In this document: one piece after another, positions 1,471-53,553 of the stretch
Layout of the letters: every line of letters begins with the position of its first letter
How positions within the stretch are numbered: position 1 is the first letter of the stretch
Source: Naegleria gruberi
Taxonomy: Eukaryota
NCBI GenBank assembly: GCA_000004985.1
Contig: GG738867.1
Length of the DNA stretch: 64,000 nucleotides
Reading direction: 5' to 3' (one strand)
Made by a program: the position numbers and the translations under genes
Notes under the pieces: model-generated
The model's database searches: none
Seen by the model: only the letters and a program-made list of their open reading frames with translations
What the model was told of the DNA's origin: nothing

Positions 1471-2109
1471 AATGTGATTATTTCAATGATTTTGTTTCTA
1501 GCCGAATCTTTGCGAAAGTAACGGAAACAACTGGCGCCAAAATACAAAAGATTGAAATTGACCTAATTTGTGCAGTGCCGGCAATAATTCCATGTAGTCC
1601 ATTATTTGCATTCCTCTGTGACAATTTTCAAAAACAATTCCACAACATTATTTCACACCTGCCAACCTTCAACCCATCAATCCAATTTTTTACATTTTCC
1701 TTTGTTGAACTTCCTTTTCCACAAAACTCTTTCAACCACCAAAATTAAACGTTAAAACAAATCATCACTATTTTCAAAAAAAAATATGGTCAATTCTGAT
1801 TTGTGAATCTTCATCATACAACAACAATAACAATAAGAATAACAATCTTCAGCATACAACAAGAGAAACGCAAAATTTTCTTTTCAAACACACTCTGAAA
1901 ACCGCACAACAGCAACAACAGCAGCACCAAAATACATTAAATTCCGTTGGGCGGGAAATCTTTTGGATTTTAATTCGCTAATTCACAATTCATCATCATC
2001 ATTATCCATTAACTATATAATTTATATTTATTTCTCTATATATTTGATTATTGTTTTCATAAATAATTCTTCATCATTAGACCGGAAAATAGTAAATAAT
2101 TTTCAAATC

Positions 2110-5100
2110 ATGGCATCAAGTGATGTTCCAATTGAAAACAACCATATATCAACAACAACAACATGGGGAAGTGCTGCTACTAATACAATAACATCAACTC
2201 CAAGACTATTGCCGAAACCTCCAGTAACACCAAGAGGAAGTACAAAGGGAAGTTTGACACCATTAACAACGACAACAACAACCACCACTACTCCAAATAG
2301 TACTATTGCTAATGTTGTTAATGTAGGGAAACAACCTCCTCCAATTACAAATATTATTAGAAATCGAATAGAATTGGAGGAAAGAGAAAAGGAAAATCAA
2401 CAAAATATTCATTTATCATCACCGTTAACATCACCATCATCAATGCATAATAGTAATACTAATAGCTATTCGAATGAATATGAAAATTCCTCATACCTTT
2501 TCCAAGATGAAGTTGAAGAATATAAAACACCACCCAAACAATCGAGCACATCAACTCCCACAACAGAATCTTCATCTGCACTTCCTCCTCCTCCACCTTC
2601 TCTTCCATCATCAATGTCTAAATTGGCTTTAAAGAATGGAAAGATCAATAATAATTATCAGAAAGTAGTGACGACCACCATGATGAGTCCTCCACCTCCT
2701 CCACCAATAACAGTGGTGAGGAATGCACCTATTGCTACAATAGCTAGTACTGCATCACCAACAGTTTCGAATAGTAGTAATACTACACAACCAGAATCAC
2801 CTCGATTGGAAAGATACAAACCACTTCCTTCTGTTGCTAAATATAAGAGAGATTCAGTGGTAATTGCTAATTTGGCCAGTTTACCACCTCCTCAAATAAG
2901 TGATATGAAAGCATTCCTTGATATTTATGACAATAAGATACTAATTGTTGATTCGAGAGCATTTAGTGGCAGTAAAACTGTTAGTGAGCAATTAATATCA
3001 AGATTCACATTACGTACATTGACCATTGACAGCATTTTAGGAAGGGGCTGTTCGGGATGTGTCTATTTATGTAGTGAGAATGGAGAAAAGTTGGCTGTAA
3101 AGATTGTCACTCCAACTGCTACTTTTGCACCTAATGTAAAAGCAGAGTATGAACTAATGAGGTCATTGAATCATGATAGTATCATGAAAGTCCATGATTA
3201 TTTTGAAATGTTAACCTCACTTCAACCTGGATCTTTATTTACAATGAAATATTATGAAAATGGAGATTTGAGAAGATTAATTGAGGATTTTGAAAAGAAG
3301 GAAAAGAAAATCTCTATTCATGTATGTATTTTTTATAATTTTTAATGTAATGTGGATTTACCTTTGAATGAAAATTGAAACAAACAGTTGATTTATGATT
3401 TCATTTATCAAATGGCTAGCTCTTTAAATTTTATTCACACTCAAAAAATAATTCACCGAGATTTGGTATGTTTTAAAATTAATCAATTTCATAACCATTT
3501 CATCAATAGAAAGTAAGTTTCCTCTTTTGTTCCTCTTACTAAATTTGATTAATAGCCTGAAAATATTTTTATGGAAAAACAAACAGATCACACTTGTAAA
3601 ATAGTATTGGGAGATTTTGGATTGGCTAAAACTATACAACAATCACATGGACTCTATTCGATTGTTGGAACAATGAATTACCTTTCTCCTGAAATTGTAA
3701 ATAATTCTGAATACGGAGCAGAAACTGATATATGGAGTTTTGGTGTTGTCTGTTACGAGTTAATGACCTTAAAGAGTAAGCAAGTTGAAAGAGTGGTTAC
3801 ACTCCGCCAACAAGGAGCTCTCGTCAATGACATGCTCAACAGATATCCTCAAGAGGTTACCATGATCGAGTTGATTGTTCAAATGTTGAACAAGAATCCC
3901 TCTGATAGACCATCAGCGGATGAAATTCTCAAACAACCATGCATGAAACACTTTATTGAAATGAAGAAAGTGTGTGAACATATTGTACAGAAGCTTACTG
4001 AAAGTTTGGCTTATTTCCAGAAAAATTACGAGTTTGAAAAATGTGTACAGATCAAAGATCTTCTACAGAGTATTAGTCAACTGAGAGCAGAGTCCTGTGA
4101 TTCGAGTAGACTCAGGATATCACTCTTCAATGCATATACATTCTTGGAAGAAAAATTACCTGAAAATATTGACCTAAAACCAACTAAACCAAAGGTCAAT
4201 TTGGCTTCCTCTCCAGAAAAGCAAATAACTACCAAGAGAAGATCTAATACCAAAGCTGGTGTAACAAGTCCATCTAATCAAAATCCTCCATCATCCAATA
4301 CAACAATAACTACCACCACCAATAATCAACCTAACTTTAGAGTAACCATCTCAGGAGATGAGGAATTTTCACATCATTCTGAGGAATCTGAAAATTCCTC
4401 TGGTTCCACCGATAGTTCAACTGCTGTCAAGAAAAACTCCAATGCAAATAGTTTAGAGCTCGAAGATCCAAATATTATTAGAAAGAGGTCATCCTCTCGT
4501 AATACTATTATAAATCAAATCAAGGGATGGGTTGGTTATGGAACAGAAAAGGAGAAAAGCTTTAGACAAACTGTGGTAATTAAGCCACCAGATCCAAACA
4601 AGTTCCAACACAGCCATCACATTGGAGTGGACGATAGAAATAGAGTGAGTGGAAATTATCCAAAAGATTTTGATTCAGTCTTACAAGACATGCATATGGA
4701 ACCAGTAGAAAGCCCAATTGTTGAAACTCCCACTCCTGTCATTAAAGAAGGAGAAGAGGAAGAAGAAATTAAACCAAGACTACACAGAAGATCAACAAGT
4801 CTATTCGAAAAGCCATCCCTCAATCAATCTCTAGATGAGATTACAACAGTCGCGAGTCCAACCAAACAACGTAGCTCGACTGTGAAAAGTAGTAATAGCC
4901 CTGTACCACCAGTGGAGATTTTAAAAGATCCTCCAAACTCACCACCAAGTACAACAACTCCTTCGACACCCTCTAACTCTGAAATACTCAAAATTTCTCC
5001 ACGATTTGGAAAGGCTGGAAAGTTAGAAGTCAGTCCAACTCCATTCGAAATTACTGGTACTCCTGTAAAATCTCCAAACACACAAAATGGTGTGGAAATT

Positions 5101-5214
5101 CCAAGTATTGGAGGTGCATTCAAACTCATCTCTGACCGAAGACAACAAGATATCATTGAAAAGAATATTGAAGAAGCTTGTAGCTCACCAACAGTTTCAA
5201 GAAGACGAAGGTAA
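2110..5214 (+). CDS. Ser/Thr protein kinase, NEK-like catalytic domain, with long low-complexity N- and C-terminal extensions. Multi-exon model: 2110..3321, 3388..3465, candidate micro-exon 3510..3512, 3556..5214.
   Basis: Kinase motifs are present: GRGCSGCVY...LAVKIV (Gly-loop and VAIK), IIHRDL | K | PENIF, DFGLAK, GTMNYLSPE and DIWSFGVVCYEL. The catalytic domain is split across ORF-track pieces 1963..3345 and 3571..5214. Intron boundaries are GTATGT...CAG (3322..3387), GTATGT...ATAG (3466..3509) and GTAAGT...AATAG (3513..3555). Confidence 0.7.
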
Positions 5215-11744: not shown

Positions 11745-11817
11745 TCCCCCTTAGCTCAGTCGGTAGAGCGTCAGACTGTTAATCTGCAGGTCGGTGGTTC
11801 GAGCCCACCAGGGGGAG
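11745..11817 (+). tRNA. tRNA-Asn: tRNA-Asn (anticodon GUU).
   Basis: Cloverleaf read by eye. Acceptor TCCCCCT pairs with AGGGGGA. D-arm is GCTC/GAGC. Anticodon loop is CTGTTAA. T-arm is GGTGG-TTCGAGC-CCACC. Discriminator G is followed by a T-run (CTTTTG). Confidence 0.9.
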
Positions 11818-19467: not shown

Positions 19468-19767
19468 GTTGATGCTGTTTTTTTCTAATAATAATTTGAT
19501 TTTATAATTATGAACGTTATTAATCACATTAAATGAAACTCAAATTCCAAAATACCAAAAATGGTAAGAAAGTTAACAACAATTTATTAAAAATTTACAA
19601 AAAATTAAAGACTGCAACTCAACATATTTCATTCCAATTCAGTATTTAAGCAATATTTATCAATGTAATTTAACCTTGACATGTTCCAATTCATAAATAG
19701 AAAGGAAACGATTGTCAATTAAATGATCTCACAAATTCGAAAGATTCATTTAGCACCAAAGTATTTA

Positions 19768-20553
19768 TTAACATTTTTGGCAATAAGATGGAATAACATA
19801 ATCAGCATCAGTATTAAAAGGTTTGAAATTCCAACTTCCTCCACTATATGAAGAAACACTTATCATTCCTCCATTCGAATCAACAACTTGTGTTTTTCCT
19901 TCCATGGAAATAATAGCACAATCATAAAAACATGGATATGGATCTGGATATGGAAGTGGAGGGGCCTTTCTTTGAATTGGTTGGACAATTAGGGTGTCAA
20001 TTTCAGTAGTATTCGAATTCACCTGCTTTCGTCTAACAAATTTTTGAGCTTTAACATGATCTTCAGTTTCAATTCCAATGGCAATGTCACCTTCAAAGTC
20101 AAAATCAAATTCTACGCATGTGACCATCAACATTTCACCTTGTTTAGTTAACTTTCTACAAGAGCAAGAAGTACCATTGAAAGTATACTCAACACCAAAA
20201 CTGGAAGGATACGGATCCATGAATCCCATAACTGTATTATCAACAACTAGTTGACCATTTATTTCAATACGGGAATCTAAACGATAACGACGATTATAGA
20301 AATCTGGCATGTGTCTTTGACGAAAAACTCCAAAACCAGAATTACAATTCATGCCATTACAATTTTCCAACATGGTTTTACTTCCTTCGAAATGGAAAGT
20401 ATGTTGACGAGGCATGCAACATGTGTGCATTGGCTGTTGTTGTTGATGAGATGATGTTGCAGGATAATTCTTCAATGGCGAGATGGCACATGTGAACGCA
20501 GCAAATGATACAAGAAGTAACAAGACAGAGGTGGCATTAAGGTACTTGACCAT
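19768..20553 (-). CDS. Secreted ependymin-related-like protein.
   Basis: Signal peptide MVKYLNATSVLLLLVSFAAFTCAIS. Conserved-looking Cys framework: CCMPRQHTFHFEG near the N-terminus, TSCSCRKL in the middle, and C-terminal PSYCQKC. These recall the ependymin/EPDR C-x-P-x-Q-W-E-G ... C-x-C ... P-x-x-C pattern. Family assignment from memory, moderate. Confidence 0.5.
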   Translation of the reverse strand: MVKYLNATSVLLLLVSFAAFTCAISPLKNYPATSSHQQQQPMHTCCMPRQHTFHFEGSKTMLENCNGMNCNSGFGVFRQRHMPDFYNRRYRLDSRIEINGQLVVDNTVMGFMDPYPSSFGVEYTFNGTSCSCRKLTKQGEMLMVTCVEFDFDFEGDIAIGIETEDHVKAQKFVRRKQVNSNTTEIDTLIVQPIQRKAPPLPYPDPYPCFYDCAIISMEGKTQVVDSNGGMISVSSYSGGSWNFKPFNTDADYVIPSYCQKC

Positions 20554-20825
20554 TTTTTTTTGGAGATTGAGTGATAATTAGCCGAAAGGAAATTGAAATA
20601 CGGAGATCGGAGACAGATAATTGAGGAGTTGGGCTGAGCTCTATACAATCTATTATCCCTTTTGAATGGCTATTTGGCTAATTAATTCTTGTTCCTTCAA
20701 CTCTGTACTTATACTTGTGAATTCCAAAAATCAATTAATTGCAGCCTCTACATTGCAATTGTAGGAACATAGTGATTTAGACTTACTAATCGATCAGTAT
20801 CTCCCTATTTGAACATAATCACGAA

Positions 20826-20906
20826 GCAGACTTGGCCGAGAGGTTAAGGCGCGAGACTCGAAATCTCGTGGGGAAACCTTCGTAGGTTCGAATCCTGCAG
20901 TCTGCG
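20826..20906 (+). tRNA. tRNA-Ser: tRNA-Ser (anticodon CGA), long variable arm.
   Basis: Acceptor GCAGACT pairs with AGTCTGC, discriminator G. Anticodon loop is CTCGAAA. T-arm is GTAGG-TTCGAAT-CCTGC. 3' flank is TCTGAAATTTTG (Pol III T-run). Confidence 0.9.
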
Positions 20907-21962: not shown

Positions 21963-24900
21963 TTAATGTTTCACTTTATTAACCATTTTTTTATCCTTTT
22001 TCATTTTGAGATCCTCTTTTACCTCTTTTAGCTTCTTAACAAGCTCATCAAAGTCCTTAATTCCATTGGAGAGATCTAAGTTATTGCATTTTCTTCCCTT
22101 TGGAGATTTTTGTTTTTTGCAAGGAGAACCACCACCACTACTTGTTGCATTTCTATTAGGACTACTACTAGTACATGATGCTGTATTGCTATTATTTTGA
22201 ATGGTGATAACTGCTTGTGATGATGGTACCTCATTTCCGCACATTGGGGTTGCTTGTACTGTTAGAGTTTCTTCTGTTTCTTGTCTTGGAGATGAGTCTT
22301 GCTTTGGAATGTCTTGTTCTATCTGGTCTTGAACATCTTTATACAAGGTCAGAGTTTCCATAACTGTTGGAATATTTGGATTAATATAATATGGACCAGT
22401 GGATGTACTGTCGATATTTACACCTAATTTCATGGAATGATTGTTTTCCTCGAATGAAAATTCTTGTGAATTTGAGGAATGTTCAATGTAATCATATGAG
22501 ATGGGTTGATCCAATTGAGTAATAATAATGGTTTCAGTTACATTCTTTTCTTCCTGTTTTGGAATGGTTTCCCATGAAACAAGTTCAAAATTCTCATATG
22601 ATTCTTCGATTTCTTTCGTTTCTACTGTAGGGTCAATTGTTTCATTAATAATATCAGATGAAAAGGCTTCTAATTTGCATAATGCATCATAGAGATGGTC
22701 CTGAACCAACGAAATGTCAAGTTTTAGCATTTGTTCAACATTTCCATTCTCCTCTGTCAATTGATACAAAGCATTAATTTTGTCAATTGTTTCAGTATTT
22801 GCACAAGCGGCTATTTTGTCAACCATTACCCCAGTTTCAGATCTGACTAGTTCTTTGAGAGTTTCGTTTGTTCCGTTTTCAATTTGCTTCTTTGCTATTG
22901 ATTTCACACATGTTGTGGGTTCAATTTCTTGATTCTTATCATTAATCTTTGCTACAAACTTGCAACAAAGTTCATTATTGAATTTCATCACTTCCTCTCT
23001 TGATGGAAGATTATTAAGGGAAGTTTCCAATTTTCCAAGATTAACATTCTCTTTAATAATCTGTGAAATATTATTTTGTAAATCATCCACATATTGTTTA
23101 ATCTTGGTATCCACTTCCTCTTTTGTAGCTATCATCTTGATCTCATCAGTTAATGTTGCTAATTCGGATTGGTTGGTGTCTAATTTGTGAGCTATTTCAT
23201 CTGCAACAAGTTGTTGAAGAGTGTCAAGTGTGCTCTTCATTTCTTTATGGAGATTCTTTTCACTTGAATTAACAAGCTCATTTGTTTCATTGATGGACTT
23301 GCCAAGATGTTCAAAATGTGTTGAAAGGTGATTATCTAGTAAATTCGTTGTTTCAAATTTGGTCGAAATGAAATTCTCCAGATTATCAACTTTGGTGCGG
23401 AGTGCTTCATGTTTTTCTGAAATGATTTGATTTGTTTCACTAATCATTGTTTGAAGTGAATCTTTAAGAGTTTCTACAAATGTTTGCTTAGTTTCGTTAA
23501 GCATTGTTGGAAGATTGTGTAATGGTTTAAGATATGTATTGGATGTTTCTTTTGAAAGATTTTCCAAATCTGAAACATTCTTTGTTAATTTCGAAAGAGT
23601 ATGGCTTGATTCTGTAACTATTTTTGTGGATTCAGTTATAGACTTCTGGTTCTCTTCAACTGTTTTGTTTGTTTTTTCAAGCGTTGTTTGAAGAGTTTCT
23701 AATGGTTGTTTAATCTGGTTGACCACTTCCTCTTCGGTAAGTATCATCTTTACCTCTTCAGTTAATTGATTCAATGCAGAGGTTACAGAGTTATGAGTTT
23801 CTTTGCTATTAGTCAAAATACTATTATTAAATCTTTCCAATTTGGAAACTACCAAATCAGTGGAATCCTTTCCAACACTTGAAATGAATTTCTCAAGATT
23901 ATCAACTTTAGAACAAAGTGCACTGCTGAACTCAGTTATTCTAAAGCGTTCTAAAGTGGTAGTTGCACTAATCAAACCTGTCAATTTTGAGGCGACAGAG
24001 TTCTGGTTCTCTACAATGGCTTGTTTGGATTCATTAAGAAATGTTGGAAGATTTTCCAATGGTTTTAGATATTTCTTGGTAGTTTCTAATTGTTGTTCAG
24101 TAATCTTTCCCATATCTTTTTCTATTATATCCAAACTGGAGTTTACAATTTCCTGATATAGTTTCAAAGTTTCCATTTCTGATTCTAATGTGGAAACTAT
24201 GGTCGAACTTTCTTTGGTAACAATCTGTTGGACACTTTCAAGTTTGCTCTTCATTTCTTTATGAAGCACTTGATTCGTATCATCAATCTTTGCTACAAAC
24301 TTGCAACAAAGTTCATTGTTGAATTTCATCACTTCCTCTCGTGATGGAAGATTATTAAGGGAATTTTCCAATTTTCCAAGATTAACATTCTCTTTAATAA
24401 TCTGTGAAAGATTATTCTGTAAATCATCCACATGTTTTTTAATCTTGTTGACCACTTCCTCTTCGGTAACTATCATCTTGACCTCTTCAGTTAATTGATT
24501 CAATGCAGAGGTTACAGAGTTTTGAGTTTCTTTGCTATTAGTCAAAATACTGTTATTGAATCTTTCCAATTTGGAAACTACCAAATCGGTGGACTCCTTT
24601 GCAATCTTGGTAATTGCTTCAGTTTGACTCTTACCAACCCTTGAAATGGAATTCTCAAGATTATCAACTTTTGAAGAAATTTCAATTATTCTTCTATTGG
24701 TTTCTTCAATCTTTTTCGTTTCAACAAGATTTGACTCTAAATTGGTAGAAATGGATTTCTCAAGATTATCAACTTTAGTGCTGAGTGTTTCGTGTTCTGC
24801 TGAAATGATTTGATTTGTTTCATTAACCATTGTTTGAAGTGAATCTACAAACATTTGCTTAGTTTCGTTAAGCATTGTTGGAAGATTTTCTAATGATTTA

Positions 24901-26273
24901 AGATAGGTACTAGATGTTTCTTTTGAAAGACTTTCCAAATCTGAAACATTCTTTGTTAATTTCGAAAGAGTTTGACTTGATTCTGTAACTATTTTTGTGG
25001 ATTCAGTTATAGACCTATGGTTCTCTTCCACTTTTTTGTTTGTTTTTTCAAGCAGAGTTTCTATTGGTACAAGATATTTCTTGGCTGTTTCTAATTGTTG
25101 TCCAACATCTTTTGCTATTGTATCCAAACTGGAGTTTACAGATTCATGATATAGTTTCAAAGTTTCCATTTCTGATTCTAATCTAGAAGCTATGGTTGAA
25201 CCTTCATTGGTAACAATTTGTTGGACACTTTCAAGTGTGCTCTTCATTTCTGTATGGAAATTCTTTTCACTTGAATCAACAAGCTCCTTTATGAGTTGGG
25301 TAATGTTCTTATCCAAGTCGTCATGTTTTTTTTCAAGCTGGTGACCAAGTTTAACAGCGCCAAGGAAAGAATTGGCAATTTTTTCTTCAAGATATTTCTT
25401 TGTATTTTCTAGTTCTGAACTTTGATTTGTAGTATTCTTATTGACAGTAGAAACTAAGTCTGAAACATAGTTCCCCAATGTTTGTGTTTCTTTCTTAATT
25501 TCTGTTATCCTTTCACATTGGGAGCTATGAAGAGAAGTGACCTCCCATTGGAGTTTGTACCAAAACATTGCGATTGCTATCAAGAGTACTGAGAAGGGTA
25601 CTATTTGCAAACTATTAGATGAATAGTTTGAGGAACTTGATTCAGGGTTACTAAGGAATGAATAAAAGTTAGACAATTCGGCACCAATGAGTGGTAGATT
25701 CTCTGTTTTACCAAATTGACTCTTGATCCAATAAACTATCTCGTCTTTGGAATCTTTTCTCAAAAAGTTGTCAATAACATTTGGTTTTAGTTGATAACTC
25801 TTTGAAAAGTATGAAACTGAAAAGTATTCAAGCAGCTTTCTGACAATTGCTGAAGATTGATCACTTCCAAACTTGGTTGTGATATGATACTCTTTCTCCA
25901 GCACTGACACATTAGCCTTGATCATGAAGGGATTAAAGAACAAGTCCTTCTTGGCCATCTGCTTGTGAACAGTCATGGCATCTTCCTTATTAAGTGAACA
26001 GAAATCCTTAGTGTTGATCACTTGTTGGGAGATGTGATTATCAAAGATTGATGCCGAAAGCTGACCACTCTTGAAACAATCAAAATTGAAGCAGAATTCT
26101 TGAAGGGATCTAATGTTCCTCTCATAGAGAATGTTCTTAATAATTCTGGAGCAACAGGTGCTGTGAGGATTGAAGGTACATTCTGATAGGACGTCCTCCA
26201 CTTTCTTGGCTTGCGAGATTTTGCTGCCGAAAAACAAGATTACAAGCAGTAGGAGAAGGATCTTTGCGATCAT
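21963..26273 (-). CDS. Giant (1436 aa) signal-peptide plus transmembrane coiled-coil protein with internally duplicated modules.
   Basis: N-terminal MIAKILLLLLVILFFGSKISQA (signal or anchor). A Cys-containing about 200-aa domain follows. TM segment LQIVPFSVLLIAIAMFWYKL. Then about 1000 aa of heptad-like E/K/T/S-rich coiled coil containing repeated modules (TDLVVSKLERFNNSILTNSKET..., VDDLQNN.SQIIKENVNLGKLE...CCKFVAKI.D). A basic Cys-containing tail closes the protein. Confidence 0.7.
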   Translation of the reverse strand: MIAKILLLLLVILFFGSKISQAKKVEDVLSECTFNPHSTCCSRIIKNILYERNIRSLQEFCFNFDCFKSGQLSASIFDNHISQQVINTKDFCSLNKEDAMTVHKQMAKKDLFFNPFMIKANVSVLEKEYHITTKFGSDQSSAIVRKLLEYFSVSYFSKSYQLKPNVIDNFLRKDSKDEIVYWIKSQFGKTENLPLIGAELSNFYSFLSNPESSSSNYSSNSLQIVPFSVLLIAIAMFWYKLQWEVTSLHSSQCERITEIKKETQTLGNYVSDLVSTVNKNTTNQSSELENTKKYLEEKIANSFLGAVKLGHQLEKKHDDLDKNITQLIKELVDSSEKNFHTEMKSTLESVQQIVTNEGSTIASRLESEMETLKLYHESVNSSLDTIAKDVGQQLETAKKYLVPIETLLEKTNKKVEENHRSITESTKIVTESSQTLSKLTKNVSDLESLSKETSSTYLKSLENLPTMLNETKQMFVDSLQTMVNETNQIISAEHETLSTKVDNLEKSISTNLESNLVETKKIEETNRRIIEISSKVDNLENSISRVGKSQTEAITKIAKESTDLVVSKLERFNNSILTNSKETQNSVTSALNQLTEEVKMIVTEEEVVNKIKKHVDDLQNNLSQIIKENVNLGKLENSLNNLPSREEVMKFNNELCCKFVAKIDDTNQVLHKEMKSKLESVQQIVTKESSTIVSTLESEMETLKLYQEIVNSSLDIIEKDMGKITEQQLETTKKYLKPLENLPTFLNESKQAIVENQNSVASKLTGLISATTTLERFRITEFSSALCSKVDNLEKFISSVGKDSTDLVVSKLERFNNSILTNSKETHNSVTSALNQLTEEVKMILTEEEVVNQIKQPLETLQTTLEKTNKTVEENQKSITESTKIVTESSHTLSKLTKNVSDLENLSKETSNTYLKPLHNLPTMLNETKQTFVETLKDSLQTMISETNQIISEKHEALRTKVDNLENFISTKFETTNLLDNHLSTHFEHLGKSINETNELVNSSEKNLHKEMKSTLDTLQQLVADEIAHKLDTNQSELATLTDEIKMIATKEEVDTKIKQYVDDLQNNISQIIKENVNLGKLETSLNNLPSREEVMKFNNELCCKFVAKINDKNQEIEPTTCVKSIAKKQIENGTNETLKELVRSETGVMVDKIAACANTETIDKINALYQLTEENGNVEQMLKLDISLVQDHLYDALCKLEAFSSDIINETIDPTVETKEIEESYENFELVSWETIPKQEEKNVTETIIITQLDQPISYDYIEHSSNSQEFSFEENNHSMKLGVNIDSTSTGPYYINPNIPTVMETLTLYKDVQDQIEQDIPKQDSSPRQETEETLTVQATPMCGNEVPSSQAVITIQNNSNTASCTSSSPNRNATSSGGGSPCKKQKSPKGRKCNNLDLSNGIKDFDELVKKLKEVKEDLKMKKDKKMVNKVKH
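22900..25300. repeat. Intragenic mosaic duplications at about 95% nucleotide identity. For example, 22961-23190 and 24301-24530 are near-identical, offset by 1341 bp.
   Basis: Direct comparison of the two stretches shows only scattered substitutions. Antisense ORF-track artefacts 22960..23190 and 24301..24498 encode near-identical peptides. The protein-level modules recur in a different order, so this is not a simple tandem array. Confidence 0.7.
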
Positions 26274-26553: not shown

Positions 26554-29088
26554 TTATTTTAATAAAGCACTCAACATTGCTTCTTGAGATCCTTTGAGGA
26601 AAAGTAATGAATTACCAATTTTGTAATCAGACTTTTCTTGCAATTTGTGTTCTTCTAAAATGGTAAGGGTATTTTGTTTGGCATCCTTTCCAAGTTTTGA
26701 TGAAGAAACAAGTGATGAAAATCTCTCCACAAATTTTTCAAATGTAAACTTTGATGAATAGCCCTTTCTAGCCAATTTAATCATTTCCAAAATTCCATAA
26801 TTTCTAACTTGTTTTTGGACAAGTTTGTCATTGAAAGCAAGAGAGCTACCAGCACTGCTGTTACGAATGCAAATGACTGGATAGGTATACTTGGTGGAGG
26901 AAATGTGTTTCAATAGGAGTTCAACATTTTTCACATAGATGTCGGAGGCAAACTCTACAGAATTGGAACCTTGCAATAATTCAGAGTAAACTGTTTGAAC
27001 AATGGTATTCTTTGAGTTTTTGGCTAAGAATTCTTTGGATTGTTGAGGAATGGAGCTGATTGGATACACTGCCTGTTGGAACCAATCAATAACCTTATAA
27101 GTGACCTTGCCATTGAAATGTCCTAAAGAGAATTCCATATCAACAAGATTTGGTTTGAAGAGTTTGCTAACTTGTTCAGATTTTCCAGAGAACATTTTTG
27201 TGAGCTCTTGAATTATTGCTCCTTCATCGGATCCCTTGTACATGCTGTTAGTTTCCTTCTTGATAATAGTGAAAACTCCATCATTGGTATCCTCAATGGT
27301 GCTCAACAGAATTGATTTGGAGTTGAATGGAGAGAAATCAATTGGTTTCCAATCAATATTCTCTGATTTGTAAATTTCTTGTTCTTGATTGAATAACTTG
27401 TCGTGAATCAATTCTTTGAATCTTTCATTTGCATAATTGACCAATAATTGTTCCAAACCATTGTATTTTACACCTCTTTGAGCATCTACACCTGTTGCAA
27501 TGCTTTCAAATCCTGTACCAATATCGATGAGTGAAATTTCTCTATTGCACTCTGGATTCTTCAACATGTCATTAATGTTCTTTACAATCCATTCGAATAA
27601 TCCATTATAAAGAGTCATGACCATCAAATCTCTATAGTGAGAAGCTTGCTTGGCATTGACAAAGGTATCAACAAAGCTGTCACCAACAGCAACCGTTGGT
27701 TTTATCATTGTGAATAATAATTCCTTATCATCAACACCCAACAATCTTGTAGCTCTATAGAATGAAGCAAAACTATTTTCACTCAACTTGGTCATTGCAC
27801 TGGTATTTGATTCATTTTCAACAAAGTCACAATTATTTAAATGTAAAAGAGCGCACAAAATCTTGGTAACATCTCCAATATTAGTTTCAGTAAAACCAAC
27901 ATTGAGGAAGAGCTTTTCTACAGCAGATGAAAAACTTGTCTTTTGTTCGAGTTCCTTATTCAACAATTGAGTGAGTTTGAATTTGGTTTTCAATTTTTCA
28001 TCGGCCAACATTTGGTAAAACACTTGGAAATTATTAATAAATCCAGATTTGTAGTCAGTCTCTTCGACTGGAATACCTTCCTTCTCAGAAATCTTTTCCA
28101 TCACCCTCACCACTGCACGACTCATTTCCAAATTGAAACATTCGAAATGAGCACCAGTGAGTGAAGAATTGGTAAATTGCAAACCAATTTTTTTAGAAAC
28201 TCTGCTACTATACTTGGATTGCTCAGTTGATGAACTTGAAAAGAGTTCAATAATTTTCAAAGCATCACTTGCCTTTGAGACAATCTTGCTATTGGTCAAT
28301 TCTCCAAAAGAATCTAATAATAATTTTACAGTAGTTGATTTTCCAGAATTACTATCACCAAGTAGAATAATTGATTGATTTTCACCTGTTGAATTCAATT
28401 TGCTAAAAACTTGATTGGGTAATTTTTGTGAAATTTTTCCATCTCGTAAATTATTAACAGAATTTGAAATGATTGATGCAAATCCACCACAATCAGTAAA
28501 CACCAAAGGATTCCTATTATCTTCTAATCTAGATTTTAAATGATGTAAAATACAAGGTTCATTAACATGAGTCAATTGTGTCAAATCTTCCAACTTGGAC
28601 ATTCCAGGAGGATTCATAAACATGACACCCATCACAGGTACCTGAGCAATTTTCTTTTTAGGATCAGAAATATTCAACAATTCAACATTGACAACATTTC
28701 CATTTCTTTCCATCAACTTTCCCATTTGAAATAATTGATTTTGAACTTGTTGTTGTGGTTTTAAATCAGAACTCAATACCCAAACATGATTATCTCCAAA
28801 TTCTTGATCACTCAAAAGTTGTGAAAATAATTTTGTACTTTTCAATGGTGAAGATGAAGAAGATGAAGCATTGGAACTTGTTTTAAAAATTGGATGAGCT
28901 TTGGAACGTGAACGGAGGTTATTTTCTGAAGAATCCGAGAGTGAATTCTTATCATTGTCGAGACCTTGTGTTTTTTGGAGCAGTTGCTTACGACGAGCTG
29001 ATGAAGAAACTGGAGAGGAATCGTTTGCTGATGACATTTTTTTTGATTGTTGATTGATGAAGGTTTTTAGTCCAATTTTGTAAGACAT
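26554..29088 (-). CDS. Myosin motor (head) domain protein with no neck or tail encoded and with degenerate ATPase motifs.
   Basis: Myosin head signatures: NPPGMSKLEDLTQLTHVNEPCILHHLKSRL, EQLLVNYANERFKELIHDKLFNQEQEIYKSENIDWKPIDF and LIDIGTGFESI (switch II-like). P-loop is GDSNSGKS (consensus GESGAGKT). Switch I is KYSSRVSKK (consensus NSSRFGK). The ORF stops right after the converter-like end, GNSLLFLKGSQEAMLSALLK. Likely start Met at 29037. Confidence 0.7.
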   Translation of the reverse strand: MSYKIGLKTFINQQSKKMSSANDSSPVSSSARRKQLLQKTQGLDNDKNSLSDSSENNLRSRSKAHPIFKTSSNASSSSSSPLKSTKLFSQLLSDQEFGDNHVWVLSSDLKPQQQVQNQLFQMGKLMERNGNVVNVELLNISDPKKKIAQVPVMGVMFMNPPGMSKLEDLTQLTHVNEPCILHHLKSRLEDNRNPLVFTDCGGFASIISNSVNNLRDGKISQKLPNQVFSKLNSTGENQSIILLGDSNSGKSTTVKLLLDSFGELTNSKIVSKASDALKIIELFSSSSTEQSKYSSRVSKKIGLQFTNSSLTGAHFECFNLEMSRAVVRVMEKISEKEGIPVEETDYKSGFINNFQVFYQMLADEKLKTKFKLTQLLNKELEQKTSFSSAVEKLFLNVGFTETNIGDVTKILCALLHLNNCDFVENESNTSAMTKLSENSFASFYRATRLLGVDDKELLFTMIKPTVAVGDSFVDTFVNAKQASHYRDLMVMTLYNGLFEWIVKNINDMLKNPECNREISLIDIGTGFESIATGVDAQRGVKYNGLEQLLVNYANERFKELIHDKLFNQEQEIYKSENIDWKPIDFSPFNSKSILLSTIEDTNDGVFTIIKKETNSMYKGSDEGAIIQELTKMFSGKSEQVSKLFKPNLVDMEFSLGHFNGKVTYKVIDWFQQAVYPISSIPQQSKEFLAKNSKNTIVQTVYSELLQGSNSVEFASDIYVKNVELLLKHISSTKYTYPVICIRNSSAGSSLAFNDKLVQKQVRNYGILEMIKLARKGYSSKFTFEKFVERFSSLVSSSKLGKDAKQNTLTILEEHKLQEKSDYKIGNSLLFLKGSQEAMLSALLK

Positions 29089-29944: not shown

Positions 29945-30025
29945 GCAGACTTGGCCGAGTGGTTAAGGCGACAGACTTGAAATCTGTTGGGGAAACCTTC
30001 GTAGGTTCGAATCCTGCAGTCTGCG
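29945..30025 (+). tRNA. tRNA-Ser: tRNA-Ser (anticodon UGA).
   Basis: Same scaffold as the Ser-CGA gene at 20826. The acceptor, T-arm, variable arm and 3' flank TCTGAAATTTTG are identical. Differences are confined to the D-loop and the anticodon stem-loop (CTTGAAA). Confidence 0.9.
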
Positions 30026-30157: not shown

Positions 30158-31200
30158 ATGCAACAAGAACAGGAGGAGGGTGATACATGTTTCGAAAGCG
30201 AACATGAGTACATCACCACACAAGATGGCTACAAAGTGTCTGGTACCTTGTTCTTTCCCATTCAACGTCATCTTGTAATTGATGAACACATGAAGACAAC
30301 TGTCATTTTATTAAGTGGAGCTATGGGAGTTCCTTCTAAATTTTATAGAGAATTTGCTAGATTTCTATGTGGAAAAACAAAATGTGTGATATCTACAATC
30401 GATTATAGANNNNNNNNNNNNNNNNNNNNNNNNNNNNNNNNNNNNNNNNNNNNNNNNNNCCATTCCAGGACTTTATTTATATTGGACACTCAATTGGTGC
30501 TCAAATACTGGCCTATTTCCCACCAGAATACTTGAAAAAACTGAGAGGAACTCTCCTAGTAGCGACACAAAGTGGTGCCCTTAAACATTGGCCATTAATT
30601 CGTCAGAGGGCAGAGTTGTACTTTTATTGGTATGTTTTTCTGCCGAGCATGACCATGCTGTATCCAAGGGAGGTTCCATTATTTGGTGTGGATAATCGAA
30701 TAATTTCAGATTGGTATGGAGCTGGTCGATGCCACAACAAGTATTTATTCGAATATTTTAATATTGGAGATGCAAAGGTTAATTCGAAACATGTATCTTG
30801 GATTTTACAAGACAAACCAGTGGTTGTATATAATGTAGATAATGATAAGTTTGCACCATATGATGCAACCATGTGGCTGACCAGAACATTTACTGAACCA
30901 AGTTTTGTTTCTGATTTGAAAATGGAATATTTCAATGACAAGTCAAAAGCTCTGCAAATAATGGATTTGAAATTTGATGGAAATGATAGAAAATTGGGAA
31001 CATTTGGAGGAAAACAAAAGATATTTTACTGTATTCGTGGCCAAGTTGCTAAAAATATTGGACATTTTAACTTTTTTAGGGAAAAGGAGGGAAAGAATGA
31101 ATGTTGGCCTCACTTGCTATCCCATTGTTTAGATTTATTAAATAATTGTGAAAATGATGATACATTAAATCCACCAACCACAAGACATAGTAAACTTTGA
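30158..31200 (+). CDS. Alpha/beta-hydrolase fold serine hydrolase with C-terminal PTS1 (-SKL), interrupted by an assembly gap.
   Basis: GHSIG nucleophile elbow (YIGHSIGAQ). C-terminal ...TTRHSKL*. Paralogue of 45097..46455. The frame changes across the 50-N gap (ORF-track 30158..30535 and 30532..31200). Confidence 0.65.
30410..30459. other. Assembly gap (50 N).
   Basis: Run of exactly 50 N characters inside the hydrolase CDS. Confidence 1.
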
Positions 31201-46596: not shown

Positions 46597-46677
46597 CGCG
46601 GTCTACAGGATTCGAACCTGTGCGGGTCGCCCCAATTGATTTCTAGTCAATCACCTTAACCACTCGGTCAAGACCGC
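46597..46677 (-). tRNA. tRNA-Ser: tRNA-Ser (anticodon AGA).
   Basis: Reverse complement folds as follows. Acceptor GCGGTCT pairs with AGACCGC, discriminator G. Anticodon loop CTAGAAA. Long variable arm. T-arm CAGG-TTCGAAT-CCTG. 3' T-run. Confidence 0.9.
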
Positions 46678-47881: not shown

Positions 47882-49501
47882 ATGGATGGAGGTAACCATT
47901 CTCGTAACAATAATGAGAGTATTATTCGAAACTCTCATTCGAATAACATGCTTGATGTTCAGTCCTCTTTACAAGATTCAAAAACAATACATGAATTATC
48001 ATCAGCAACAACACCACAACAACAATTATTTGGAAAAGGTTCCTCTTCTTCTACCAGTTTAGTCTTACCATTGACTGGACTAAACCTTTCCAATAACAAT
48101 ACTACTAGTAATTCTATTAATATTAATAATAATAATACCAATGGTCTGTCTTCTAATAGTAGCAGACAATATGTATCAGATACAACAAGTGTACAAACTA
48201 ATAATCGATCAGATTCGTCCAATAGGAATCGAATAGGATTAGTGGATTACACAATGTCAGATTCTAAAGATGACGATACTCATCTATTGATGCTACAACA
48301 TTCCACTAATAATAATACTAATCCTCAACAAGTTTCGTCTATCCTTTCGAATACAACATCAACAGCTTATCAGCAACAAGTCTTTCACTCTACTGCACCA
48401 ACACAACTGCATGGCAACAACACAGGACACAACAAGATTTTATCATCGAATAACGATTCTTCCATAATATTACCCAACGTTTCGTCCCAACTTTCGAATA
48501 GCAACATGTTTGTTTCTTGCATAAACAAATCAGCAAATTCTGTCCATTTTAATAACAACCAGTCAATGTCTAACATGCAATCTGATACAATGGAGGCATC
48601 AGAAGGAATTTTCATGCCAAACTCGCAAAACTCTAGGAATAGTACAACAACAGGATTGGTTTCGAATAACTCCACGATGATGCATGTAGCATTCTCAACT
48701 CAAAAAAACATGCAAAATGGTCAACCAACATGCTCCTCATCATCGTCATTGGAAAATCAACATCAACCACAACATGCATTACAACAAACGAATGTTGGTA
48801 TAAACTCGACTAATCCAAACTATCAATTCCTAATTAATCAAATGCAACAAACACCATCATCATCATCATCATCCATGAGAATGCTTCCAAATGCAACATT
48901 GAACATGCAATTGAATGCGAACATTTCATCATCTCTACAAATGGTAAACAATCAGACGACGACGACAACAAACTTTTCAAATTCTTCTTCCAACATTCAA
49001 AACATTCCAACGACATTTAATTCAATGATTGTGGAATATCAGACAATGCCACTTTCTGTCAGTAATCAAACAAATCAATTGACATCCATTGGAATGCATG
49101 ATGAAACCATGTTGAAATTGGATTTGGAAGATTTTGTGAATACGTTACATAGTGAGGAATATAGAGTCTATATGGATATGAATAATCTCGTTTCGAATAG
49201 TTACCATTCGAATAGTATTGTAGTGAATCATCCTTCACAACAACATCCTTTAACGTCATCTTCTAATTTACCTCAACAACAAATATCATCACTACATGTA
49301 AATCCACCTCCTAATTTTGTCCCTTCTTCCAATTTATTGAATAATCCCAACCTTTCGAATATTGCAAACAACAATTTGCATATTATCTCTTCTCAACAAC
49401 AGCAATTGCAACCAATCAACATTAACAACATGCAAAGAGTTGTTTCTCTAAATCTAGGTTCCTCCTCTTTAAATCCTACTTCCCATTTCCCATTCGAATA
49501 A
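47882..49501 (+). CDS. Low-complexity Asn/Ser/Thr/Gln-rich nuclear-type protein.
   Basis: 539-aa ORF dominated by N/S/T/Q tracts. One short, more complex patch: ETMLKLDLEDFVNTLHSEEYRVYMDMNN. Confidence 0.4.
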   Translation: MDGGNHSRNNNESIIRNSHSNNMLDVQSSLQDSKTIHELSSATTPQQQLFGKGSSSSTSLVLPLTGLNLSNNNTTSNSININNNNTNGLSSNSSRQYVSDTTSVQTNNRSDSSNRNRIGLVDYTMSDSKDDDTHLLMLQHSTNNNTNPQQVSSILSNTTSTAYQQQVFHSTAPTQLHGNNTGHNKILSSNNDSSIILPNVSSQLSNSNMFVSCINKSANSVHFNNNQSMSNMQSDTMEASEGIFMPNSQNSRNSTTTGLVSNNSTMMHVAFSTQKNMQNGQPTCSSSSSLENQHQPQHALQQTNVGINSTNPNYQFLINQMQQTPSSSSSSMRMLPNATLNMQLNANISSSLQMVNNQTTTTTNFSNSSSNIQNIPTTFNSMIVEYQTMPLSVSNQTNQLTSIGMHDETMLKLDLEDFVNTLHSEEYRVYMDMNNLVSNSYHSNSIVVNHPSQQHPLTSSSNLPQQQISSLHVNPPPNFVPSSNLLNNPNLSNIANNNLHIISSQQQQLQPININNMQRVVSLNLGSSSLNPTSHFPFE

Positions 49502-50012: not shown

Positions 50013-50269
50013 TTTTAAAAGGTGGTGTGTGAAATTCATTATTTGGACCATTGAATTATTGAACCAATTTGTAAAGTGGAGAAATAATGGAAAGTCAATT
50101 GCATTTATGTCAGTAAATAGAGGCAATGGTGCAACATTGCAAATCTGACTAATGATCCTTCCGGATGAAAATTTAAAGTATCTTCCAAATAATAATTCAA
50201 CAATTGTAATCAAGTAAAAAACACTGGACGAATTTGTGAATTTATATTAAGCCAATAGATAAAATGAAG

Positions 50270-50340
50270 TGCATTAGCCGGGAGTCGAACCCGGGTCACC
50301 AGCTTGGAAGGCTGGTATGATACCGTTACACTACTAATGC
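50270..50340 (-). tRNA. tRNA-Gly: tRNA-Gly (anticodon UCC).
   Basis: Reverse complement is GCATTAGTAGTGTAACGGTATCATACCAGCCTTCCAAGCTGGTGACCCGGGTTCGACTCCCGGCTAATGCA. The acceptor stem is perfectly paired and the anticodon loop is CTTCCAA. Confidence 0.9.
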
Positions 50341-53472: not shown

Positions 53473-53553
53473 CGCAGACTGCAGGATTCGAACCTACGAA
53501 GGTTTCCCCAACAGATTTCAAGTCTGTCGCCTTAACCACTCGGCCAAGAATGA
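53473..53553 (-). tRNA. tRNA-Ser (UGA)-like copy with a degenerate 5' acceptor strand. Probable tRNA pseudogene or duplication breakpoint.
   Basis: Positions 8-81 are identical to the Ser-UGA gene at 29945, including the 3' flank TCTGAAATTTT. The first 7 nt read TCATTCT rather than GCAGACT, so only 4 of 7 acceptor pairs can form. Confidence 0.5.

Follow-up and report, generated by a model that had tools for sequence, protein, structure and literature searches.

We identified, in a 64,000-nucleotide stretch of contig GG738867.1 of Naegleria gruberi (assembly GCA_000004985.1; this whole stretch is referred to below as the window), a single uninterrupted open reading frame (ORF) of 1436 codons on the minus strand at 21963-26273. 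Its product of 1436 amino acids (aa), followed by a stop codon, exactly matches the N. gruberi protein XP_002677438.1 (EFC44694.1; UniProt D2VF07; gene NAEGRDRAFT_67461). The ORF list, the translation, and this exact match in the protein collection define a complete intronless coding sequence. NAEGRDRAFT_67461, whose product we call D2VF07, is an already catalogued but uncharacterised gene: the public annotation says only “predicted protein”, no mention of the gene under its identifiers was found in the literature, and the supplements of Naegleria papers held nothing relevant to it. We regard it as a real, intronless, nuclear gene of N. gruberi. An ORF of this length is beyond chance because, at 33% guanine plus cytosine (GC), about 7% of random triplets are stops, and the probability of 1436 open codons in such DNA is about e^-109 (an estimate from base composition). 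A spurious ORF was therefore rejected, given this length, the in-frame offsets of the repeats described below, and a synonymous divergence that exceeds the nonsynonymous divergence (dS > dN) between the repeat copies. The codon usage of the gene is similar to that of neighbouring genes, which is weak evidence from a poorly discriminating test. A prokaryotic or viral origin was also rejected, since the neighbouring genes are eukaryotic (myosin, Vps51/Sec5-like, Sec7 guanine nucleotide exchange factor (GEF), Der1, and EB1). An earlier note on this DNA called the protein giant; at 1436 aa it is large.

Comparison of the gene with itself (self-blastn) yielded five strong off-diagonal pairs with E-values from 1e-25 to 1e-120, and all of the offsets are divisible by 3, so that the repeats are in frame, real, and far beyond chance; a separate repeat search of the DNA recovered the same pairs. 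We label them A (aa 328-357 and 997-1026; 86% nucleotide identity), B (aa 340-406 and 671-741; 83%), C (aa 402-512 and 856-973; 86%, with gaps), D (aa 557-613 and 800-856; 94%), and E (aa 593-668 and 1040-1115; 92.5%). As measured, the copies are 83-94% identical in nucleotides and 63-88% identical in amino acids, below the nucleotide identity of about 95% that had been stated for them. All four modules named in the earlier note are present: EMKS..LESVQQ is found at aa 340, 671, and 1009; TNKKVEEN..NQIIS at aa 411 and 866; TDLVVSKLERFNN at aa 558 and 801; and VDDLQNN..CCKFVAKI at aa 613 and 1060. The two near-identical stretches of 230 bp that it placed at 22961 and 24301 correspond to 22928-23154 and 24269-24495 (227 nucleotides, 93% identity). 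The borders of the blocks are sharp: identity is 83-100% within a block and falls to about 30% beyond it on the same diagonal. No block is longer than 354 bp, and the longest exact intragenic repeat is 45 bp. There are also older, weaker copies with 37-47% aa identity (for example, aa 433-492, 711-770, and 892-934), and short motifs recur along the protein, with four occurrences of KVDNLE(K/N)xIS, five of NLP(T/S), and three of LT(E/D)E(V/I)KMI. These results support intragenic duplication of modules inside one large, probably membrane-anchored, helical protein. Taken as a whole, the earlier observation holds in part and was overstated, and the interpretation built on it is partly supported. 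On the plus strand, the gene contains three antisense ORFs of 65-117 aa (22960-23190, 23803-24156, and 24301-24498), two of which are duplicated as well; they result from the repeats and the skewed composition and give no evidence of further genes.

Taken at high identity, a first series of blocks (A, B, C, D, E) is followed along the protein by a second one in another order (B, D, C, A, E), which had been read as shuffling and rearrangement of modules. Gapped alignments indicate that the shuffled order is almost entirely apparent, and that the sequence is best described as a colinear tandem array of a super-unit of about 340 aa with deletions, in which at most one 30-aa block (aa 997-1026) is misplaced. 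Super-unit 1, the complete one, was delimited by self-blastn, block borders, and unit alignments at 24270-25292 (minus strand, aa 328-668) and contains blocks A (aa 328-357), B (aa 338-391), C (aa 405-510), D (aa 559-613), and E (aa 593-668). Super-unit 2, delimited by semi-global alignment and MAFFT at 23706-24269 (minus strand, aa 669-856; B2 at aa 669-722 and D2 at aa 802-856), is colinear with aa 338-613 of unit 1, carries internal deletions (the counterpart of unit 1 aa 404-460 is missing, as are some smaller pieces), and is without block E. Super-unit 3, which may instead be units 3 and 4, was placed by semi-global alignment at 22929-23705 (minus strand, aa 857-1115) and contains C2 (aa 862-971), an A/B-like block (aa 997-1041), a copy of the tail of D (aa 1040-1060), and E2 (aa 1040-1115); it is colinear with aa 403-668, the last four-fifths of unit 1, and is truncated at its start. 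The semi-global score is 528 for aa 669-861 against aa 338-618 (shuffled maximum 124) and 767 for aa 857-1115 against aa 403-668 (shuffled maximum 155); across all of the colinear unit alignments the scores are 435-767, where shuffled sequences reach at most 113-155, and a three-unit MAFFT alignment agrees with this picture. The offsets between units 1 and 2 drop monotonically (331, 278, 254, 243). The units are thus colinear, in frame, and significantly similar, as in a tandem-repeat protein that arose by intragenic duplication. The sole out-of-order piece is the A/B-like block at aa 997-1041, which occupies the place of the body of D in unit 3.

The helical part of the protein would then have been lengthened by in-frame tandem duplication of the super-unit through unequal recombination or slippage, with partial deletions afterwards, so that one copy is complete and two or three are partial. 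These two processes suffice because the gapped alignments are colinear apart from the A block. True module shuffling, in which blocks were moved by non-homologous rearrangement or inserted as copied segments, would account for the order of the high-identity blocks, for their sharp borders, and for the A block (86% nucleotide identity), whose position after C2 and before E2 does not fit the order of a three-unit model. However, the gapped alignments place every block but A without transposition, the drop in identity outside the blocks comes partly from insertions and deletions, the weaker segments (47-83% aa identity) still align colinearly, and a four-unit model with deletions puts A in order too, so we consider shuffling unlikely. 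The colinear units are unevenly similar (76-85% aa identity in B and D, 47% between them), and this patchiness, together with the sharp block borders, suggests that re-duplication or gene conversion of tracts of 170-350 bp contributed as well; such later events would probably add to the patchiness of an array formed by tandem duplication. In a stronger form of this idea the units are ancient and diverged, and the high-identity blocks are recent conversion tracts of 170-350 bp in an old array. Its attractions are the mosaic identity, the coexistence of older copies (37-47% aa identity) with younger ones, block lengths typical of conversion tracts, and unequal dS values (0.12 versus 0.25-0.30). 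Yet conversion requires a starting similarity that the diverged flanks do not offer, and with so few substitutions per block (2-12 synonymous) the age differences are not robust; we hold this version to be possible though doubtful, while gene conversion as such is compatible with growth by tandem duplication and may be part of it. A tandem haplotype duplication was rejected, as the copies are 6-17% different and only partial units recur. An error of the reference, in which the arrangement or copy number of the units is wrong, is very unlikely. The repeats do lie within the gene, a scaffold gap of 50 N lies about 4 kb off, and no independent sequence of the gene was found; against this stand a Sanger assembly, copies that differ by 6-17%, a longest exact repeat of only 45 bp, no gap in the gene, and a reading frame that stays intact across 4.3 kb.

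The earlier note regarded the region as prone to assembly collapse. Sanger reads are about 700 bp long, longer than every block. The repeat blocks have unique flanks, and no N run interrupts the gene, the window's single one being at 30410-30459; no second sequence of the gene was found in the protein collections or in metagenome contigs. Collapse or mis-joining of the repeat region is unlikely because the NEG-M reference was assembled from Sanger reads (PMC9928731, Table 1) and the blocks are short and uniquely flanked, in a gene without gaps, an argument from the sequencing method and the repeat lengths. The 50-N scaffold gap itself separates the myosin gene from the next recognisable one and interrupts the ORF at 30158-30535.

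The duplications had also been called very recent. Between copies, dS is 0.12-0.34, several times the 3% DNA divergence of a wild N. gruberi-like strain at a neighbouring gene, so that the duplications are not very recent. By the Nei-Gojobori method, dN/dS is 0.43-0.75 in the main blocks and 1.31 in the 30-codon A block, a short one; pooled over 279 core codons, dS is 0.137 and dN 0.078 (omega, the ratio dN/dS, 0.57). The copies thus appear to be under weak constraint (omega of about 0.6). The wild strain is known from a 1081-bp metagenome contig (ENA ERZ929261, run ERR1078381, PRJEB11402) that is 97% identical to positions 19552-20633 of the window and encodes a 95%-identical copy of D2VF05, the product of a neighbouring gene, which is secreted and Cys-rich; because of this identity, the sample contains a close N. 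gruberi-like strain.

The architecture of D2VF07 outside the repeats was examined by a hydropathy scan (Kyte-Doolittle mean over 19 aa, threshold 1.6), which found only two hydrophobic segments, aa 1-19 and aa 221-241. The first belongs to a signal-peptide-like segment at aa 1-22 (26208-26273, minus strand; mean 2.4 over 19 aa) that starts with MIAK, continues with the core ILLLLLVILFF (aa 5-15) and GSKISQA, and is followed by KK; read by eye, the sequence has the n/h/c layout of signal peptides, with small residues at -3 and -1 (S and A, in a cleavage-type S-Q-A motif). Next comes an N-terminal domain (aa 23-222; 25608-26207, minus strand), recognised by composition, with six Cys and a Ser-rich stretch before the membrane; Pfam gave no match to aa 1-222 at E <= 0.01, and a single-sequence AlphaFold2 model of aa 1-260 was unusable (predicted local distance difference test, pLDDT, 40.9). 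The second hydrophobic segment contains a predicted transmembrane helix, QIVPFSVLLIAIAMFWYKL (aa 223-241; 25551-25607, minus strand), with Kyte-Doolittle values of 1.7-1.9 and a helical state in the low-confidence AlphaFold2 model. A single internal hydrophobic helix (aa 221-241) is as expected of a type I single-pass protein, and the membrane anchor proposed in the earlier note is probable on these hydropathy values. A non-repeated helical segment (aa 242-327; 25293-25550, minus strand) lies between the membrane helix and the repeat array. Following the array, the non-repeated C-terminal region (aa 1116-1436; 21966-22928, minus strand) is of low complexity, acidic, and rich in S, T, N, and P, with the basic clusters SPCKKQKSPKGRKC and KKLKEVKEDLKMKKDKKMVNKVKH; at the end of the protein these appear as KKQKSPKGRK and KKLKEVKEDLKMKKDKKMVNKVKH. 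Neither a Pfam match nor a homologue was found for this region. The helical region carries 19 N-x-S/T sequons, where about 16 are expected from composition.

From aa 242 to aa 1146 the sequence is rich in E, L, T, S, K, and N and has few Pro and Gly. The AlphaFold2 single-sequence model predicts almost all of aa 320-1150 to be helix, in helices of 20-130 aa, at low confidence (pLDDT 48.5; predicted template modelling score 0.18). Hydrophobicity has a period of 3.65 residues in aa 242-391, and over aa 242-1146 a spectral peak lies at 3.6 residues, with a power of 5.9 compared with a shuffled maximum of 0.98; the power at 3.5 residues, the heptad value, is 0.26, equal to that of shuffled sequences. 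In a comparison of registers, an 18-residue (7+11) pattern gave the best occupancy of core residues (0.63 versus 0.58 for the heptad), and the hendecad the lowest, with best-register occupancy above that of shuffles for all three patterns alike. Some local self-matches occur at offsets of 7 and 21. The coiled-coil label that had been attached to the protein is thus not established, because the period is 3.6, none appears at 3.5, and the 18-residue register fits best, in a region where helix is predicted at low confidence; straight amphipathic helices or helical bundles would be equally possible.

D2VF07 appears to be taxonomically restricted, and sequence comparison detected no homologue of it, not even among the proteins of N. 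fowleri and N. lovaniensis. A word-indexed search of the full-length protein against 5.8 billion proteins gave no match, and neither did a search of the joined non-repeated N- and C-terminal parts against the same 5.8 billion proteins at E <= 10. An exhaustive phmmer search of aa 1-1200 against 1.84 billion cluster representatives gave nothing significant, and the same was true of the PDB when searched with the single sequence and with a profile of the three units; the marginal PDB match is a myosin-7 rod fragment (E = 0.003). No match to D2VF07 was found in metagenome contigs (by protein and by exact 26-mer), in viral and prokaryote genome contigs, in the rest of the 64-kb window (tblastn), or at the myosin loci of N. 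fowleri and N. lovaniensis (tblastn). Both of these species are represented in the collections searched, as orthologues of the adjacent N. gruberi myosin were found there with 44-47% identity. Pfam, run on all of D2VF07 and separately on each of its ends, returned only sub-threshold matches (Apolipoprotein, HSBP1, and TetR_C). The match to Apolipoprotein A1/A4/E (PF01442; aa 286-443) has 34.2 bits and E = 2.7e-8, where the curated gathering cutoff is 90 bits, and most likely reflects composition and amphipathic helicity. The 90%-identity cluster to which D2VF07 belongs is represented by an unrelated 52-aa ENA fragment (MRSEQTARWYQL...), which is why the protein has no self-hit among the cluster representatives. 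As a practical lesson, a misrepresented cluster of this kind makes D2VF07 invisible to searches of cluster representatives.

Several known systems share parts of this layout. Streptococcal M proteins are fibrillar helical proteins whose tandem repeat blocks (A, B, C, and D) change by intragenic recombination. D2VF07 resembles them as a putative long α-helical rod anchored to a membrane or wall, whose repeat blocks differ in age, are gained and lost in frame, and evolve under weak constraint; it shares no sequence similarity with them, however, is eukaryotic, has a putative signal peptide and a predicted internal transmembrane helix instead of an LPXTG wall anchor, and differs in its unit of about 340 aa, its period of 3.6 rather than 3.5, and the probable cytoplasmic location of its repeats. 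Apolipoprotein A1/A4/E (PF01442), the only family with a reported match, also consists of amphipathic helical repeats interrupted by Pro and Gly. In contrast to these apolipoproteins, D2VF07 is probably membrane-anchored and is much larger, its match reaches 34.2 bits against a cutoff of 90, and it has no dominant period of 11 or 22 residues (a minor peak is found near 10.65, with power 1.3). STIM1 and other helical tethers of the endoplasmic reticulum (ER) and Golgi have, beyond their luminal domain and single transmembrane helix, a helical region in the cytosol and a C-terminus that is polybasic. The likeness to STIM1 is one of layout only: a putative signal peptide, a Cys-containing, putatively luminal domain of about 200 aa, and a predicted transmembrane helix near aa 220-240, then a long helical region, a segment rich in S and P, and a Lys-rich end. 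There is no sequence similarity to STIM1, neither an EF-hand nor a SAM nor another Pfam domain was found in the N-terminal part of D2VF07, and its helical region is several times longer and repetitive.

Our preferred topology is of type I: from the order of the hydrophobic segments we infer that the Cys-containing domain is luminal or external, and that the helical region and the basic tail are cytoplasmic. A cleavable signal peptide would send about 200 aa, with the six Cys and a Ser-rich stalk, to the lumen or the cell surface, and the transmembrane helix (aa 223-241) would stop transfer, so that the remaining ~1195 aa stay in the cytoplasm. There, about 900 aa would form amphipathic α-helices broken at the recurring NLP(T/S) motifs and at Gly sites, followed by a disordered acidic tail whose polybasic end could bind acidic lipids or another partner. 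Anchored in the membrane, the protein may thus act as a helical spacer or tether, and gain and loss of units could change its length and its surface; this role is the least certain part of the proposal, and we hold it with low confidence.

Two other arrangements have to be weighed against this topology. In a type II protein the first hydrophobic segment would not work as a signal peptide, the one transmembrane helix would leave the C-terminus outside, and the helical region would be exposed at the surface, as a coat or adhesin in which turnover of repeats generates surface variation. A region rich in S, T, and N with 19 sequons would suit this arrangement, and so would repeats that evolve fast under weak constraint in a lineage-specific gene, all features typical of surface proteins. 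But the n/h/c layout of the N-terminus is that of a canonical signal peptide, the second helix as a stop-transfer sequence would leave the C-terminus in the cytoplasm, the sequons are not in excess over the number expected from composition, and six N-terminal Cys suit an oxidising compartment better than the cytosol; we consider this arrangement quite improbable. The other possibility concerns the ORF immediately upstream (26554-29088, minus strand), whose product is 100% identical to the N. gruberi myosin D2VF08 and which lies 280 bp from the D2VF07 gene. D2VF07 could be the detached tail of this myosin, either through a mis-split gene or as a membrane-anchored tail that acts in trans. The myosin ends right after its motor domain (the Pfam match extends to aa 832 of 844), and a long helical region is encoded just downstream on the same strand, as in the heavy chain of myosin II. 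However, the myosin has its own stop codon (26554-26556), which is followed by a 280-bp adenine- and thymine-rich spacer and then by the ATG of D2VF07, which opens onto a putative signal peptide and 320 aa of sequence unlike a rod; the two are annotated as separate entries; and the orthologous myosins of N. fowleri and N. lovaniensis are also short and tail-less (917-932 aa), with unrelated GTPase-like genes downstream, so that only the myosin is shared in synteny. Unlike a myosin II tail, D2VF07 is encoded by an ORF of its own, starts with a putative signal peptide, has a predicted transmembrane helix, and is without IQ motifs, the 28-residue charge repeat, or heptad periodicity. A split gene was rejected for want of continuity with the motor, whether in one frame or across an intron, and we give the detached-tail idea almost no credence.

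Overall, we consider it fairly probable that D2VF07 is an orphan membrane-anchored helical protein that grew as a tandem array and may serve as a spacer or tether. Several points weigh against this reading. The gene model comes from sequence; omega is not significantly different from 1 (Fisher p = 0.06); both AlphaFold2 models are of low confidence (pLDDT 48.5 and 40.9) and allow no tertiary or oligomeric inference; the A/B-like block (aa 997-1041) fits the colinear order only with a fourth, heavily deleted unit; the absence of homologues is not absolute, since the misrepresented cluster shows that a collection can hide sequences; and the tether function is deduced from architecture. A more far-reaching proposal, that D2VF07 founds a Naegleria-specific family of membrane-cytoskeleton or membrane-contact tethers whose reach is set by the number of 340-aa units, perhaps also serving as a tail in trans for the adjacent myosin, is highly speculative, and we think it most improbable.

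The genomic neighbourhood of the gene is eukaryotic in character: the surrounding ORFs include Vps51/Sec5-like, Sec7/BIG GEF, NUDIX, DUF4419, Der1, EB1, HMG box, and protein kinase genes, and the GC content is 30-38% across the window. The myosin D2VF08 has non-canonical nucleotide-binding motifs (GDSxSGK(S/T) as P-loop and DIGTGFE as switch II), and these variants are conserved in all four aligned Naegleria-type sequences; its best PDB match, Dictyostelium myosin II, reaches only E = 4e-50. A protein kinase domain is split over two plus-strand ORFs, with the N-lobe at the end of the first (1963-3345) and the C-lobe at the start of the second (3571-5214); they are probably one gene with an intron of about 225 bp. 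Six transfer RNA (tRNA) genes lie in the 64 kb, an unusually dense set (11745-11817, 20826-20906, 29945-30025, 46597-46677, 50269-50340, and 53473-53553). Half of them are tRNA-Ser genes, with anticodons CGA, UGA, and AGA, and the one at 53473-53553 was detected by Rfam and missed by ARAGORN. An ORF of 539 aa at 47882-49501 (plus strand) has no Pfam match, lies where the GC skew of the window is most negative (-0.32), and correlates least well with the other genes in codon usage (0.67).

Protist genomes commonly show intragenic repeat evolution of this sort, and there is no sign of an unusual mechanism here. The gene is a well-delimited example of a lineage-restricted membrane protein that lengthened its helical region and whose copies were then eroded by deletion, and it illustrates that an apparently shuffled order of blocks can come from a colinear array. 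D2VF07 is of little importance outside Naegleria biology; within it, if the protein were an abundant structural component (for instance of the cortex, of contractile-vacuole or ER contacts, or of the cyst), the number of repeats could mark strains.

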